A stretch of 42,267 nt of DNA from the NCBI GenBank assembly GCA_046757025.1, contig JBHHXN010000026.1, forward strand, positions 1 through 42,267. Direction: 5' to 3'. Source of the stretch: a bacterium (GTDB lineage Bacteria > Zhuqueibacterota > Zhuqueibacteria > Oceanimicrobiales > Oceanimicrobiaceae). The notes below the pieces were generated by a model. That model was not told where the DNA came from and did no database searches. It saw nothing but the letters and a program-made list of their open reading frames with translations. Below are positions 8,404-14,704 of this stretch, piece by piece. The position numbers and the translations under genes were made by a program. The first letter of the stretch is position 1. Each line of letters begins with the position of its first letter.

Positions 8404-8481
8404 AGTACCTCCAATATTTACTATGCATTAAAATAAGACAGTAACCCTGAATTACTCATACAAAAGCGAGCGAACGTGTTA

Positions 8482-8527
8482 GGTGTTCAGCCTTTAGGCT
8501 GCCTGGACACGCCGAAGCGTGAACACC
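8482..8527. repeat. REP-like doublet: two inverted 20-bp palindromic units
   Basis: GGTGTTCAGCCTTTAGGCTG ... CACGCCGAAGCGTGAACACC; a second copy lies at 14319-14378. Confidence 0.75.
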
Positions 8528-8598
8528 GAACGGGCTCTTCAAAATTCAGTTTTTCGATTTTGAACGTAAAATCCTGGTTTGTGAATAATACAAGTTAA

Positions 8599-9696
8599 TT
8601 ATTGATTGACCAATTGCAAAACCGAAGACCTCTCAACAAGATGAGATTTGAGTACTATCTTTTGAGGGGCGATGGATTCACCCTTTATGCGTGCCATGAT
8701 CAATTTCATGCTTTCCTGGCCCATTTCGTAAATTGGCTGGTGCATGGTCGTCAAAGCCGTGGGATGCGAATTGATGAACGGTAGATCGTCGTATCCCACC
8801 AAAGAAATATCATCGGGAATGGAAAGGCCCATCTCATGTGCCTCTGAGTAAAACAAGTAGGCAATGCGGTCGTTGCCGGTAAAAACGGCGGTTATGTCAC
8901 CTGCCTTGCGTAAGATAGTGCGCACGGACTCCCGGAAATGTTTCTCGACATACGGCGTTTTATCCGCGATGACGATGGACGAGTCAATTGGGATGCCATG
9001 TTTTTCCAGAGCATATTTGTAACCCGCAAGCCGTTTGGCTTCGGTGTTGTACAAACGGCTCAAGACCACCGCTATTTTTCTGTGACCGTTTCGGATGAGA
9101 TAGTCCGTCACTTCGTAACCGCCATCGAAATTGTTGGTGGTAACGAAGTCGCTCTGCGTTTGGGGAATTTCCCTATCCGCAATGACGACCTGGATATTAT
9201 TTCGGGTGAATTTTTCCAAAATCGTTCTATTCTGATCGTCGGTGGATGCGGTAGGTACAAAAATCACCCCGCTGACGTGATGTTCGATGAGGCGTTCCGC
9301 GTGAAAATCCGCTCTAACATACGAATCGTCTGTGTTGCACAAAATGAGGCTGTGTTTGTTTTTGGCGGCTTCATCGCCGGCCCCGCGCGCCAGCTCCGGC
9401 GCATACCCACTGCGGATGTCCGGTACCAGTACCCCCACGATAGTCTGCTTTTCCCGATTCTCTTCGCGATTGATGACAAAGGTACCCAGCCGCCGCTGAC
9501 GCGACAGGTAACCCAAATTTACCAGGTTCTGAACCGCCTGACGAATGGTGGCCCGGGCTAAACCGGTCATTTGTACTAATTCCTCTTCAGTGGGAATTTT
9601 CTCGTTCGGTTTGATGACGCCCTTTTCGATCTGCTCGATCAACCAGGTTTGCAGTTGAAAATACTGGGGAATGGGACTGTTTTTATCGATGATCAT
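8599..9696 (-). CDS. GntR-wHTH / LacI-type sugar-binding chimeric transcriptional regulator (AraR-like); probable inositol-locus regulator
   Basis: N-terminal PQYFQL...KIPTEEEL...RATIRQA...GTFV (GntR); C-terminal periplasmic-binding fold with GHRKIA, RLAGY, NDRIA, ISLVGYDD and LTTMHQP. Confidence 0.9.
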   Translation of the reverse strand: MIIDKNSPIPQYFQLQTWLIEQIEKGVIKPNEKIPTEEELVQMTGLARATIRQAVQNLVNLGYLSRQRRLGTFVINREENREKQTIVGVLVPDIRSGYAPELARGAGDEAAKNKHSLILCNTDDSYVRADFHAERLIEHHVSGVIFVPTASTDDQNRTILEKFTRNNIQVVIADREIPQTQSDFVTTNNFDGGYEVTDYLIRNGHRKIAVVLSRLYNTEAKRLAGYKYALEKHGIPIDSSIVIADKTPYVEKHFRESVRTILRKAGDITAVFTGNDRIAYLFYSEAHEMGLSIPDDISLVGYDDLPFINSHPTALTTMHQPIYEMGQESMKLIMARIKGESIAPQKIVLKSHLVERSSVLQLVNQ

Positions 9697-9733: not shown

Positions 9734-9761
9734 TTATACACCAATACCTTTAAAATGTCAA
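9733..9761 (-). promoter_or_regulatory. Consensus sigma70 promoter for the regulator/iol operon
   Basis: Minus strand TTGACA (9761-9756), 17-nt spacer, TATAAT (9738-9733): a perfect consensus. Confidence 0.85.
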
Positions 9762-9947
9762 GGGATTTAATGAAAACTTAACATTCATCTTTATTTTCAG
9801 CTTGCAGGCTCTTCTCCAGCCCGGTAACTGGATTTTTAACAGAGGGTTTTTCTTTGATTCATAGGCGAGGTGAGAAGCTTTGCAGCAGGTATGATTGAAA
9901 GCAGAAAAATCGAAATGACTTGCGAGATTTGTGTTATTACAGAAGAA

Positions 9948-10379
9948 TTATAACAAGTCAGGTGGGTGCCAGCCGGCCGATATCCAGTTTCGGCGGACCT
10001 CCACCGCAATCTCATTGTTAAGGCGCAACGCCGCAACCGTCGCTCTGCCAGTGGGCGTCCGGCCGGCAATATGTGTTCCTTTCTGTGCCCACTGAAAATG
10101 CTCTTTCCAGTTTTGAGTTCGTGGGTTAAACAGAGCCACGGTTTCACCACTCTCGGGATCGACAGCCATAATCTGAGCGCCTTTGCAGCGATTACAGTGA
10201 GGACACGAAAGCCACAGGTTGGATTCATCATCGCTGCCGCCTTTGGAACGAGGTATGAGGTGATCGATTTCAAACGTAATTGGGACAACCCTTTGTGGGC
10301 AGAGGCAGTAGCCACAGCGGTCTTGGGCAGATTCTCGAATGCGTTGACGAACCGAGTCCGGCACCTTGGACCCGCTCAT
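9948..10379 (-). CDS. HNH endonuclease
   Basis: RCGYC...FEIDHLIPRSKGGSD...NLWLSCPHCNRCK and a C-terminal LFNPR..W..HF...TPTGRAT...LRLN; ATGA overlap with the upstream gene. Confidence 0.9.
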   Translation of the reverse strand: MSGSKVPDSVRQRIRESAQDRCGYCLCPQRVVPITFEIDHLIPRSKGGSDDESNLWLSCPHCNRCKGAQIMAVDPESGETVALFNPRTQNWKEHFQWAQKGTHIAGRTPTGRATVAALRLNNEIAVEVRRNWISAGWHPPDLL

Positions 10380-11050
10380 GGTTGCAGGGGCTTTATGATG
10401 CGGCGTTTCACGGCCTCACGCAGCGCCTGCGATTTGCGAAGCAAACTGTGTTCGTAGATGCGCATGAGCTCATCGAGCTGCTGCTGCCCCTTGGAATCAA
10501 GCTCGCCTTCGCGGTTTTTCTGTAACAGCTCGTTTAACTTAGCCTGTTGTTCCTTGCTGAGCTGCAGTTCCGTCAGCTTCAATAATTCCTCATCCGACAA
10601 CATATCTACTGGACGATTGAGCCTTTCGATAATCTGCTGCTCGGCGATTTTAAGCAGACGTTGTATCTCTTTAGAAGAATAGGGGGGGTTAATTTTGAGT
10701 TTCTTTATCAACTCTAAATCTTCTTCTTCCCCCTGTTCGGCCATCCACCAGAGCGTCGTTCTGAGATTTTGTTCAGTTTTCGGAGAAAATAGCGTCAGTC
10801 TTCTTTCCATATTTTCAGAAATAGTCACTCGCTCATGCCATTTTTTTTTGATTTTGGGCCACCCTCCATTACTACAACTATAAGCTTCTTTGCTTAACTC
10901 TATCAAACACTCTCTTAAAACCATTGCGACAGCGAGTTCAAATTGTTGTCGTTTTTTGGGAACGATACTCTTTTTGGTTTCTGAAAGCAAGTTTTTTAAA
11001 TTTTGTAAATAAAAATCGACGATATCTTCGCCATTTATCATGGCATCCAT
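10376..11050 (-). CDS. Hypothetical protein with an unknown N-terminal region and a C-terminal helical domain like that of small proteins encoded upstream of HNH nucleases (putative antitoxin-like)
   Basis: C-terminal LSDEELLKL...LSKEQQAKLNELLQKNREGEL...LDELMRIYE..LLRKSQAL..AVKR; translationally coupled to the HNH gene. Confidence 0.65.
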   Translation of the reverse strand: MDAMINGEDIVDFYLQNLKNLLSETKKSIVPKKRQQFELAVAMVLRECLIELSKEAYSCSNGGWPKIKKKWHERVTISENMERRLTLFSPKTEQNLRTTLWWMAEQGEEEDLELIKKLKINPPYSSKEIQRLLKIAEQQIIERLNRPVDMLSDEELLKLTELQLSKEQQAKLNELLQKNREGELDSKGQQQLDELMRIYEHSLLRKSQALREAVKRRIIKPLQP

Positions 11051-11069
11051 CCTTATTATTTATTATTGT

Positions 11070-11468
11070 TCACTTTAGAATCTTTTCCACTTCTTCAGCC
11101 AATTCAAAAGGTAAATAATCTTCTTTTCTGAAAAAGTTACAATTGTCTTCTTTACGAAATCGTTGCAGCAACTGGTAATCAGAAACATTAGTCAGAATGA
11201 TCACAGGTAAATCGGGAGCAGCTTTTCTTATTCTTTCAAAAAAATGCACACCCGTCCGCAATCCTTCACGTGTATCCACCTTTTTAAAAATCGACCCGGG
11301 CGGCATCATGATATCTAAAATGAGAAGATCAATGCCATCTACGTTATTCTCAAAAAAGTGCCAGGCTTCATCCACATTTTTTTGAAAAACTACTTTATAA
11401 CCGCACAACTCCAGCTCTTTAGCGTAACTATCCATCTCCCTTTTTTCATCATCAAGGAAGAGTATCAT
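11070..11468 (-). CDS. Stand-alone response-regulator receiver domain
   Basis: ILFLDDE, LLILDIMMP (phospho-acceptor Asp), IILTN and FFRK; no output domain; overlaps the kinase stop by 17 nt. Confidence 0.9.
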   Translation of the reverse strand: MILFLDDEKREMDSYAKELELCGYKVVFQKNVDEAWHFFENNVDGIDLLILDIMMPPGSIFKKVDTREGLRTGVHFFERIRKAAPDLPVIILTNVSDYQLLQRFRKEDNCNFFRKEDYLPFELAEEVEKILK

Positions 11469-14226
11469 GAGGAACCTCCTTCAGTCTCTTGGGTATTATT
11501 ACCTGAAATTCCGTTGGTTTACTATTATTAGTAAGGACCAAATCTCCACCAAATTCTCTCATAATTTTTCTGGAAATGGTGAGTCCCAATCCCGAACCAG
11601 CCACGTTTTTGCTTTTAGCTTCTGGAGAACGAAACCCACTTTCAAAAATTTTCTTTTCCAATCCTTTTCGTATGCCTATCCCCCAATCTCTGAACTTAAT
11701 AACAATAGAATTTTTAGTTAATTCCGCATAAATTTCAATTTTAAACTTCGACGGCTCCCTCTCCGCGTATTTAATAGAATTAATCAGTAAATTATAAATA
11801 ACCTGATTGAATTTCGCTTTGTCAATATATAATATATCAATTTTGCGGATATCTGCCGGGTTGATCAAAATATTTGACGCATCAAATCCATCGTGTAAAA
11901 CAATTGGCTTTAACTGATTAATAGTTTTGATAATCACATCCCGGAATACGAGCGTTTTTTCAAATTTGGAAATGGGCGAAGGTCTGCCGAGGGCGTATTC
12001 CAAATCCTTGACTTGATGCAAAAGTAACTCGCAATCAGTGAGAATATCATCAAATTTTAGACGAATCAAAGCCGTTTCCAAATCATTGATGCGTCTTTGC
12101 AGAAAACTGGCATTACTCCTGATTCCGACAATCGCAGCCCTGAACTCATGACTGATTCGATCTATGAGTCCGCGTTGCCTTTGCTTTAAAGCCATAACCG
12201 TATAATCGACAAAACCCTGTAAAATTTGAATATCCTGCTCGTAAATAAATTCCCGGCTGTTTCTCTGATAACCCGCTTCAACCGTTCCAATCACTTGCTC
12301 ATTCGAAGAGTCGAGCATGGGAATAAATACCCGCAACAACTGGTCGCGGTTAAAGCGTTTTTGTATTTTGGGATCGAATCGTTTATCATCATTCGCGGGC
12401 ACTTCAATGTTTCGGGTTCGAACGATATCGGCCTGAATATTATCGCTATCCAGTGGATGATCGGCTAATTTTTTAAATGCTTCTACCTGGTTCTTGGGAA
12501 ATCCGAAAACGTATTCCGACTTAATGCAATTGAGCTCTGAATTCACCAAGGAGATATTGACATACTCATAGCCAAGGGTATCGGTAATCGCTTTTTGAAC
12601 GATTTCAAAGATATCATCCCAATCCTGCTTGCCAACAATTTCCTTTTGAATTTGAGCTAATTTAGTTAACTTACGATCAAATTCCAATCTTTCAATACGG
12701 ATGGCGGCATGGCGGGTAAGTGACCAGAGTATGTCCACATCGGCTTGTGAAAATGCCCGCTCCGTGGTACTTTCAATATTGAACACGCCAATCGTTTTGG
12801 TGCCGTATTTAATTTCCGTACCGACGCGCACCTCCGCTTTGTTGATCAAGATGGGGACCGCTAATTCGGAACGCGTGTCGGGCCAAAATTCTTCATATAT
12901 TTCTTTCCACTCGGGGCTTTTGACATTATCTACTTTAATGGGCTGCTCTTCCCGAAGCGTTTTGCCGGTAATTCCCAGCTCAATATTTAATGTGCGTAAA
13001 TTCGGTGGATTATCTCGATGGGCTAAGATATTCAATTGATTGGTCTTAAAATCTAAGGTGCTGATCCAGCCTCTTTTGCATCCGATGAGTTCCAGGCCTC
13101 TGTCGAGCAACAACTCCAAAAGTTTATCGGTTTGGCGCACCTCGGACATTTCCTGCATGATTTCATTGAGCTTTTCAAGCCGTTTGCGACTGGTGATATC
13201 CTCGGCCTTTTGAATCGACAAAGCCGCATAGTTGGCAAACGAACAAAAGACCTCCTTTTCCCATTCTTTGAAGTATCGTTTGGTTTTAGTATAAACATCC
13301 AGCATGCCGATGAGTTTGGTGGCCACCCGCATCGGCGCGCTTAGCAACGAAACCCAGCCTCTTTCTTTTGCTTCTTTACCATGCCCATAATTAGGATTGT
13401 CTTTGGTAACATCGGCCAGATAAGATACCTTCTTTTTTAAGTGTTGCTGAACACCGGAGGCATTTAAATCGAGCTCTATCCTTTTGAAATTTGCATCTAC
13501 ATTGCCTGTAGCCGATACGATCTTTAATTTCTCCTGCTTCTCATCTAACTTCCATACGATGCAAATTGGCACATCCAGTAATTCACAGGCCTTATTTGAA
13601 ACTTGCTGAAGAAAATCTCGTGGAGAACTCAAAAGTAGATTTTGTGAAATGGCGTTTAAAATGCTCGAGGATCGTTCAAGCAAGCGATAGTGCTCAAATC
13701 TTTCGATGGTGATGACTGCCTGATGAGCAAAAATCTGCAAAAGTTTTTTATCATTGCCGGTGAACCAGTTTGATTCAGGTGAAAAATGATTCAATCGTCC
13801 GATTAGCCGATCATTTGACATCAATGGACAGCTTAAAACAGAATCCAAATTATATTTTTTGGCGACCCTAGGATTCGCCACTCCCTGTCCATTTTTCTTT
13901 AATTTATTGATAACGATTGTATCATTTATTGCAAATTTTTCAAAATCCAGAATTTCTCCATTTTTTTCTAAACCCAGCTTTATTTTTTTCCCTGAAACCC
14001 GTTTCTCATACTCCTCGTCGAAACCAACACAGGCGACTTGCGTAAGATATTTGTTTTCAATATCCACAAATGTGAGGGTGCAAGCATAAGAATCCAAAGC
14101 ATCCTTACTGATTTCACAGATTCTCTTCAGAGCCTCTTTTCTGTTTTTATATTGCAGAGGTACTTCACTCAAGGCATTGAGCGAATTGATCAGATCAGGC
14201 CTGAGCCCCAGTCCAATTCTTAACAC
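11452..14226 (-). CDS. Soluble sensor histidine kinase with about 4 tandem GAF domains
   Basis: Repeated GAF signatures (SVLSCPL..IGRLN, SLLSAPM..LIGMLDV, SELAVPI..IGVFNI, VFIPM..VIGTVE); H-box SHEFR, N-box NLLINSIKY, DWGIGI and GSGLGL; no TM segments. Confidence 0.9.
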   Translation of the reverse strand: MLRIGLGLRPDLINSLNALSEVPLQYKNRKEALKRICEISKDALDSYACTLTFVDIENKYLTQVACVGFDEEYEKRVSGKKIKLGLEKNGEILDFEKFAINDTIVINKLKKNGQGVANPRVAKKYNLDSVLSCPLMSNDRLIGRLNHFSPESNWFTGNDKKLLQIFAHQAVITIERFEHYRLLERSSSILNAISQNLLLSSPRDFLQQVSNKACELLDVPICIVWKLDEKQEKLKIVSATGNVDANFKRIELDLNASGVQQHLKKKVSYLADVTKDNPNYGHGKEAKERGWVSLLSAPMRVATKLIGMLDVYTKTKRYFKEWEKEVFCSFANYAALSIQKAEDITSRKRLEKLNEIMQEMSEVRQTDKLLELLLDRGLELIGCKRGWISTLDFKTNQLNILAHRDNPPNLRTLNIELGITGKTLREEQPIKVDNVKSPEWKEIYEEFWPDTRSELAVPILINKAEVRVGTEIKYGTKTIGVFNIESTTERAFSQADVDILWSLTRHAAIRIERLEFDRKLTKLAQIQKEIVGKQDWDDIFEIVQKAITDTLGYEYVNISLVNSELNCIKSEYVFGFPKNQVEAFKKLADHPLDSDNIQADIVRTRNIEVPANDDKRFDPKIQKRFNRDQLLRVFIPMLDSSNEQVIGTVEAGYQRNSREFIYEQDIQILQGFVDYTVMALKQRQRGLIDRISHEFRAAIVGIRSNASFLQRRINDLETALIRLKFDDILTDCELLLHQVKDLEYALGRPSPISKFEKTLVFRDVIIKTINQLKPIVLHDGFDASNILINPADIRKIDILYIDKAKFNQVIYNLLINSIKYAEREPSKFKIEIYAELTKNSIVIKFRDWGIGIRKGLEKKIFESGFRSPEAKSKNVAGSGLGLTISRKIMREFGGDLVLTNNSKPTEFQVIIPKRLKEVPHDTLP

Positions 14227-14318
14227 AATAAGTCTCGCTAAATTTTATTGGTTTTAATTTTATTCTAAGAGTCTTAAATACAGTTGATTACAAGCGATTC
14301 ATCATCCGCGATTTTATT

Positions 14319-14378
14319 GGTGTTCAAACTTCAGCTTGCTTGGATTGTTAGAAAGGAACACGCTAAAGCGTGAACACC
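14319..14378. repeat. REP-like doublet, same family as 8482-8527
   Basis: GGTGTTCAAACTTCAGCTTG ... CACGCTAAAGCGTGAACACC. Confidence 0.75.
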
Positions 14379-14615
14379 GACGGTTTAAAAATCACGCCAA
14401 AGATCCGTCTGCTCAAGTTAAAATCGCAGATTTCAGATTCCAGTAATTAAATAATTTAACGATGAAATAGGTTCCCATTTCAGGGCAACGTAGTTCAAGA
14501 GAATACACAGCCCGTCGTGCTTTGATTTTTAAATCAGTGGAAAAGGGGACATAAATCTTTCCGGATTAGCGGTTGCCACCGAAATATTCTAAATATTGTT
14601 ACCGACACTAATTAC

Positions 14616-14644
14616 AATATGCAAAATTAAGGAAGGCTTGTCAA
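14616..14644 (-). promoter_or_regulatory. Candidate sigma70 promoter for the kinase/HNH island
   Basis: Minus strand TTGACA (14644-14639), 17-nt spacer, CATATT (14621-14616); the -10 element is imperfect. Confidence 0.45.
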
Positions 14645-14704
14645 GTTAAATTTTCATTAATAAGATTAAGTATATTCAGCAACTGTATGGAGCAATAAAT
14701 CGGG

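Follow-up and report, generated by a model that had tools for sequence, protein, structure and literature searches.

A kinase–receiver–adaptor module with exchangeable outputs and its HNH nuclease version in a member of the Oceanimicrobiaceae

How might a soluble sensor kinase and a receiver with no output domain be linked to an HNH nuclease, as the gene order at this locus suggests? The window (the whole analysed stretch of 42,267 nt) holds an operon of four minus-strand ORFs at 9948-14226, delineated by Pfam search and ORF reading, in which a histidine kinase gene is followed by those of a lone receiver, a 224-aa protein and an HNH endonuclease. The first-pass annotation of this DNA proposed a phosphorelay acting on the nuclease through contact with the middle protein or, alternatively, a chance accretion of genes. 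The operon proved to belong to a real, uncatalogued kinase–receiver–adaptor module with exchangeable outputs, of which the window contains a rare HNH version.

The operon and its genomic surroundings

The genes of the operon and the elements of its leader are as follows.

11452..14226, minus strand: histidine kinase gene, 924 aa; four GAF domains, HisKA and HATPase_c; H693 and the N and G boxes intact; Ala at H+4
11070..11468, minus strand: stand-alone receiver gene, 132 aa, without an output domain
10376..11050, minus strand: gene of the 224-aa fusion protein, for which Pfam gave nothing useful
9948..10379, minus strand: HNH endonuclease gene, 143 aa (Pfam HNH)
14308..14378, no strand assigned: dispersed palindromic repeat (hairpin) in the operon leader, with 5 other copies in the window's genome (G000) and many matches in a genome of another genus of the same family (G017)
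14616..14644, minus strand: sigma70-like promoter candidate, TTGACA-17-CATATT, 10/12 consensus matches

The tight coupling of the four genes, read initially from the letters, is exact at every junction: the kinase and receiver genes overlap by 17 nt, a 19-nt gap separates the receiver gene from that of the 224-aa protein, and the latter joins the HNH gene by an ATGA overlap. The description of the kinase as soluble, with about four GAF domains, is borne out by four GAF stretches in Pfam, the absence of a membrane helix and a maximal 19-residue hydropathy of 1.15; its start is a GTG without a clear Shine-Dalgarno sequence, and the exact position of this start is uncertain. In agreement with the absence of an effector domain claimed for the receiver, Pfam finds a lone receiver in its 132 aa. 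G000 contains no close paralogue of any of the four genes. The promoter candidate was recognized by its match to the consensus, 16 such sites being found versus 11.1 expected in shuffles, and the hairpin repeat of the leader is probably outside the system.

Several features of the surroundings deserve a record. A palindromic dispersed repeat of about 155 bp (8446-8601), MITE- or REP-like, lies between a dehydrogenase gene and a gntR/LacI gene and is represented in G000 by about 10 other copies at 85-92% identity, with related copies in G006; the leader hairpin is its shorter relative. The gntR/LacI gene (8599-9696), whose product combines a GntR HTH with a sugar-binding domain of the LacI type, adjoins the dehydrogenase gene in G012 and G016 as well and retains a consensus promoter without mismatch, TTGACA-17-TATAAT, at 9761. 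The island is flanked by 16-nt inverted arms (9767-9782 and 14645-14660, 94% complementary), each located just upstream of a TTGACA -35 box; these may represent operator or UP-like elements common to both sides, or a product of chance. As candidates for direct or inverted repeats of a mobile element, only short pairs at chance level were found, the 16-nt arms at 9767 and 14645 adjoining the two promoter -35 boxes. Excision between the contig ‘joints’ 8501-14357 was likewise rejected, the joints being due to the related repeats, with fewer than 30 letters on a side.

The block had been described as an AT-richer interruption between two catabolic clusters. Its placement between them was confirmed, no gene being broken by it, and the compositional part of the description holds for 10621-14226, where the GC content is 0.398, a value as low in 1.3% of 2754 genome-wide 3.6-kb windows. 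It fails for the HNH gene (GC 0.546) and for the final 81 codons of the gene encoding the 224-aa protein (GC 0.516, GC3 0.65), which are host-like, and the GC step at ~10620 thus places the boundary of the AT-rich block inside the gene of the 224-aa protein. An assembly chimera at this step was ruled out: the same fusion exists in G017, and position 10620 is bridged by contigs from three runs of one study, two of which may be the source of the assembly. The kinase part had a lower GC content than its flanks in 23/23 loci measured, and its AT-richness is therefore a trait of the family. An empty site with the two flanks adjacent was not seen among 21 genomes of the bacterial family.

The fused middle protein and its exchangeable cargos

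The compositional step coincides with a fusion point. The 224-aa protein consists of two parts of different relationship:

10622..11050, minus strand: adaptor domain (residues 1-143); six helices, of which the last four resemble two HEAT/alphaRep repeats; predicted receiver-binding domain
10376..10621, minus strand: fused tail (residues 144-224); C-terminal part of the HNH-partner family; putative antitoxin neutralising domain

The tail (the last 80 residues) matches the C-terminal part of a common protein of 120-145 aa, which is the usual neighbour of this nuclease. The HNH family occurs in 25/167 genomes of the phylum, with up to 18 matches per genome, and in 28/30 of the HNH loci returned the partner gene stands directly upstream, mostly with overlapping stop and start; the two exceptions are a broken HNH and a locus at a contig edge. 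Such free-standing pairs (L225-L252) were observed throughout the phylum as a widespread, multicopy, uncatalogued TA-like module. By analogy with TA pairs, the partner family likely acts as the antitoxin. Compared with a profile built from 20 free partners, the 224-aa protein covers only positions 50-129 of 130, the first ~49 positions being absent from it. This missing region is a putative ribbon-helix-helix (RHH): Atlas matches of free partners to Arc/FitA-like RHH proteins reached 0.87-0.88 on 13-22% of members, and Pfam gave neither an RHH match nor any other family in 20 members, so that the RHH identity is treated here as a lead only. In the nuclease of the window H40, N54, N63 and two CxxC pairs are intact, as read from the sequence.

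The fusion recurs at an unrelated locus of G017, where the end of a receiver gene precedes it and the HNH gene comes after it. Between G000 and G017 the dN/dS ratio was 0.20 for the adaptor core, 0.34 for its N-terminus, 0.08 for the tail and 0.11 for HNH, at dS of 1.0-1.9, and these values imply that the fusion is old and has been maintained under purifying selection. A further protein, P0134, carries the adaptor fused to a complete HNH partner, which indicates a second, separate capture of the partner family; P0134 and the kinase P0033 both lie on contigs of 7298, a circumstantial link, and P0223 is a weak match for the same capture. These data bear directly on the possibility that a mobile partner-HNH pair was inserted into the third gene of a module of the S8 protease type and truncated it, leaving a functionless relic. 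The GC shift at the fusion point in G000 and the multicopy, scattered nature of the HNH pair would suit such an accident, as would the limited distribution of HNH cargo described below; the junction is nevertheless in frame and at a domain boundary, is shared with G017 at dS >1 and dN/dS of 0.08-0.34, and the partner family was acquired independently in P0134 and, by a weak match, in P0223. Considering also the abundance of small TA-partner-type tails among adaptor proteins (see below), we regard chance accretion as improbable.

The adaptor itself fell into no Pfam family at E below 0.03 in 10 members checked, and so matched no catalogued EAD family. AlphaFold2 predicted an all-helical structure with pLDDT of 93.8 for the full 224-aa protein and 95.2 for residues 1-146. 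Residues 76-146 superimpose on alphaRep 4jw2 with Z 9.3 and rmsd 1.5 over 66 residues, Z below ~13 being common among helical repeats; Foldseek searches of the PDB with either model returned no match at E<=0.001, and sequence searches of the PDB nothing meaningful. The possibility of an HPt domain was dismissed, as a conserved His is absent; the residues R83, W102, G107 and R143 reach a conservation of 95% or more. The adaptor profile (~residues 40-146) matches 242 clusters at 50% identity, and its distribution is sporadic (11/401, 7/401, 3/401 and 1/201 sampled genomes), with none found in plasmids. G000 contains a single match, no additional copy is present on the kinase or receiver in 16 loci, and tandem copies within one chain occur in 6 of the best 150 proteins.

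For the comparison of gene neighbourhoods 26 loci were assembled, comprising 8 kinase-anchored and 16 new adaptor-anchored ones together with the window and G017, while the weak adaptor matches G046 (E 6e-5) and G156 (E 2e-4) were left out. The kinase-anchored loci are the full-length family members among 80 loci listed in a scan of genome contigs; the corresponding scan of metagenome contigs gave no full-length member among the 80 matches listed. The adaptor gene follows that of the receiver in 26/26 loci, with the kinase upstream in 25 of them and off the contig in the remaining one. All 8 kinase-anchored loci have the order kinase, receiver, third gene, each third gene sharing ~residues 40-146 of the 224-aa protein, and in 16/16 adaptor-anchored loci one or more kinase-family genes and a receiver gene are directly upstream, although a frameshift interrupts two of these receiver genes and several of the kinase genes are either split or truncated where the contig ends. 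Kinase, receiver and adaptor are thus the conserved core of the module, and it is the cargo that is exchanged, with the following distribution among the 26 loci.

S8 subtilase in cis: 15/26 loci (14 by Pfam; one cut off before the catalytic domain; one split)
HEAT cargo: 2/26 loci
nSTAND1 cargo: 2/26 loci (one by Pfam, one by likeness)
DUF5678-like tail and retropepsin-like gene: 2/26 loci
Xre/MbcA/ParS C-terminal tail and RES gene: 2/26 loci
HNH pair: 2/26 loci (the window and G017, both in one family)
Unclassified tail and gene with a PemK-like motif (no Pfam match for this gene): 1/26 loci

The S8 protease in cis is the commonest cargo here, and the motif in the gene after the cargo tail of the last-named locus is one that we take to be PemK-like. 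A search for synteny of kinase, receiver, hypothetical protein and HNH had been proposed; the order receiver, fusion, HNH does recur at the unrelated G017 locus, but HNH is present in only 2/26 loci. Similarly, the view of HNH as the nuclease output of the operon gains from the tail being the usual partner of the HNH family, and has to be corrected in that HNH is swappable and not a part of the core.

A wider sample is provided by the best 150 of the 242 adaptor clusters, classified by Pfam with extension by local clustering and profiles: their tails are DUF5678-like in 46, Xre/MbcA/ParS C-terminal toxin-binding domains in 24, HEAT in 21, S8-type in 17 and HNH-partner in 3, with an N-terminal TIR in 6 and other or no tails in 33. 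Small tails of the TA-partner type are therefore carried by 73/150 of these adaptor proteins, about half. The Xre-C tail is followed by a RES gene in L208 (E 5e-17) and L209 (E 0.004), and the DUF5678-like tail by a retropepsin-like gene in L205 and L206 (Pfam score below cut-off). On the adaptor tree (144 rows) the cargos are interleaved, requiring 38 changes versus a minimum of 5 and a shuffled mean of 60; as the tree is weakly resolved (8/141 branches starred), this number of changes is not forced, and the sequences fit, without compelling, repeated cargo swapping.

Individual loci added observations of their own. The retropepsin-like genes behind the DUF5678-like tails (L205:7195-8665, L206:7158-8357) contain a DTG motif, which suggests that DUF5678 may be a partner or inhibitor of small aspartic proteases; in the literature searched DUF5678 is mentioned only in an unrelated context. 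In two Acidobacteriota genomes (L026:9187-14621, L208:2213-8454) the same-looking two housekeeping flanks, presumably yebC-like and ruvC-like genes, enclose different cargos, PemK-like and RES, respectively. P0210 and P0211 bear an adaptor followed by both DUF5678-like and Xre-C tails, a possible record of serial cargo capture. Tandem duplicate receivers precede the adaptor-nSTAND1 gene in L214 (7584-8449), and in both HEAT-cargo loci (L023:8731-9933, L213:3191-4540) the gene immediately before that of the kinase encodes an FAD-dependent oxidoreductase (DAO).

Phosphotransfer, receiver docking and the predicted switch

All phosphotransfer residues are intact in the kinase and receiver of the window. 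In 24 family receivers D6, D7, D52 and K115 are invariant and position 93 is Thr or Ser. Of 7996 candidates scored against the kinase, 191 are relatives at E<=1e-30, with 3, 4 or ~6 GAF-sized repeats as judged by length. Phosphatase activity of HisKA kinases is described in PMC3510030 as requiring Thr or Asn at H+4. This mark of a bifunctional kinase/phosphatase is absent from the window kinase, which has Ala, and in the family position H+4 is occupied by Ala in 22, Ser in 8, Thr in 3 and other residues in 2 sequences (n=35), never by Asn. As the phosphatase residue is mostly missing, the switch is predicted to latch.

The proposal of a relay through the middle protein gained support from the invariable position of the adaptor gene directly 3' of the receiver gene and from a model of the receiver-adaptor complex, which passed its controls. 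The score of the model was 0.71 (0.70-0.73), the best of 3 controls reaching 0.00; its runs share at least 97% of contacts, with partner pLDDT of 86-87. The score mark applied was reached by 116/157 solved versus 2/215 mismatched pairs, counts that are only rough for the alignments used here. The adaptor is predicted to dock on the phosphorylation face of the receiver: the modelled interface comprises receiver residues 7-8, 54-56, 67-70, 94-97 and 116-121 and caps the loops around D52, T93 and K115, with adaptor W101, W102 and E105 in its centre. The receiver side of the interface is conserved above the rest of the protein (0.66 vs 0.54, p=0.03), and the adaptor side is not (0.42 vs 0.39, p=0.23). 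Since the model contains no phosphate, it gives no direction for the switch; we lean only slightly to the phosphorylated receiver as the form that binds the adaptor.

The receiver active-site face is also the one used by the Rap, CheZ and CheX phosphatases. A different function of the adaptor has hence to be weighed, namely that of an aspartyl phosphatase or phosphate sink which resets the receiver, the real output being elsewhere and the cargo only tuning the reset. The modelled cap over this face, the location there of E105 (75-80% conserved) and a kinase devoid of Thr/Asn at H+4, whose missing phosphatase activity the adaptor could replace, are in favour of such a function. On the other hand, the interface has no conserved amide or His (Q106 36-39%, H72 27-33%), no other output gene is common to the loci, and the repeated fusion to antitoxin-type tails would be left unexplained. 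A resetting role is accordingly considered quite unlikely.

We find it reasonably probable, instead, that the phosphorelay gates an antitoxin-type tail and in the window releases the HNH nuclease. The four GAF domains would sense a cytoplasmic signal; H693 would then be autophosphorylated and, judging from the family, the phosphate transferred to D52 of the receiver, which would dock on the adaptor through its phosphorylation face, as modelled. The docking may loosen the grip of the tail on the co-translated HNH protein, and the freed nuclease would cut nucleic acid and arrest the cell, a step proposed because of the TA-like gene order and the Xre/RES cargo of sister loci. With a kinase mostly deprived of the HisKA phosphatase residue, the switch would be a latching one. 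In evolutionary terms, the adaptor may have been put in place of the likely DNA-binding domain of the partner in the HNH case.

The cargo spectrum also raises the question whether the tail could be an activator or tether, the phosphorylated receiver recruiting or oligomerising the adaptor-tail-HNH assembly and thereby switching the nuclease on. Direct effector fusions do exist (6 TIR-adaptor proteins, 2 nSTAND1 loci, 15 S8 loci), and cargos of these three kinds might be activated in cis; the partner family, moreover, has no validated antitoxin function. Against this count the tails of the Xre/MbcA/ParS toxin-binding type in 24/150 adaptor proteins, with RES downstream where seen, and the organization of free partner-HNH pairs, whose multicopy units of two genes, joined by overlapping stop and start codons, have the layout of type II TA. 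Activation through the tail therefore appears unlikely, although the commonest cargo of the 26 loci, the S8 protease in cis, and the HEAT, TIR and nSTAND1 cargos, which are not antitoxins, speak against antitoxin release.

Antitoxin release being retained as the preferred reading for the window, it may be extended, more tentatively, to the whole family: the adaptor would be a universal phospho-switch handle whose fusion to the partner or antitoxin of nearly any toxin pair, or in front of a protease prodomain, brings the effector under direct, latching two-component control, the pairs with HNH, RES, retropepsin-like and PemK-like proteins being interchangeable phosphorelay outputs. If so, the family would represent a class of signal-triggered dormancy or cell death in which TA pairs have been domesticated as outputs of a phosphorelay. 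As to defence, no defence-island enrichment was detected, since PADLOC gave only generic matches among 95 neighbouring proteins (ABC ATPases, a Ser/Thr kinase, a reverse transcriptase, a desaturase-like protein and a HEAT protein), and a defence role is thus without support from the neighbourhood.

These findings bear on two open questions, what triggers most TA pairs and what job output-less receivers perform, and the family offers a defined chain linking both: kinase, receiver, adaptor-antitoxin, toxin. If the proposed mechanism is true, the adaptor, with at least 242 diverse clusters, would be a portable module that lets phosphorylation control a toxin or protease, and the family would give a first clue to the function of the HNH-partner and DUF5678 gene pairs, both of which are widespread.

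Comparison with known systems

In classical antitoxins, a DNA-binding domain is combined with a neutralising domain that can be separated from it (PMC10440598). The HNH pairs resemble type II TA pairs in having a small upstream partner and a translationally coupled enzyme in a recurrent, multicopy arrangement (28/30 HNH loci), and the sister loci with an Xre/MbcA/ParS C-terminal domain and RES resemble the TA system of that name. Unlike in type II TA, the probably DNA-binding N-terminus of the partner is replaced in the 224-aa protein by a predicted receiver-binding adaptor, and the pair, a putative TA only, is coupled to a kinase.

Ternary conflict systems use effector-associated domains (EADs), which couple homotypically (PMC7159879, PMC8195603) and are likewise small, all-helical, non-enzymatic domains found on changing effectors (TIR, STAND NTPase, peptidase, repeats). 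In those systems a second copy of the domain resides on a core component, whereas here the predicted partner of the adaptor is the receiver, neither kinase nor receiver carries the adaptor domain, and the MoxR/vWA/GTPase core is absent.

Phosphatases of the Rap, CheZ and CheX type are also helical and contact a single-domain receiver on its active-site face; the adaptor differs from them in that none of the sequence or fold matches listed for it was to these proteins and that a catalytic amide is not conserved. No description of the module, including such control of TA pairs, was found in the literature searched, the scope of which excluded supplements and the 2020 work of Burroughs and Aravind. 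The latter reportedly treats kinase-receiver conflict systems and might mention the adaptor family.

The closest known system in logic is Detocs, composed of the DtcA kinase, the stand-alone receiver DtcB and the receiver-effector DtcC (bioRxiv 10.1101/2023.01.24.525353), although its defining features are not those of the present module. Both are three-gene operons that unite a sensor kinase, a stand-alone receiver with an intact phospho-Asp (D52 here) and swappable effectors, including nucleases. The sensor here has four GAF stretches and, by Pfam, no TPR, in contrast to the TPRs of DtcA; the third protein is a HEAT-like adaptor, all-helical in its model and without the receiver domain of DtcC; and the toxin, unlike in Detocs, is often encoded by a separate gene, the present module being known from sequence and models. 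Whereas the Detocs effector is fused to a second receiver and DtcB has been proposed to be a phosphate buffer (bioRxiv 10.1101/2023.01.24.525353), the module described here has one receiver, which is predicted to be the messenger.
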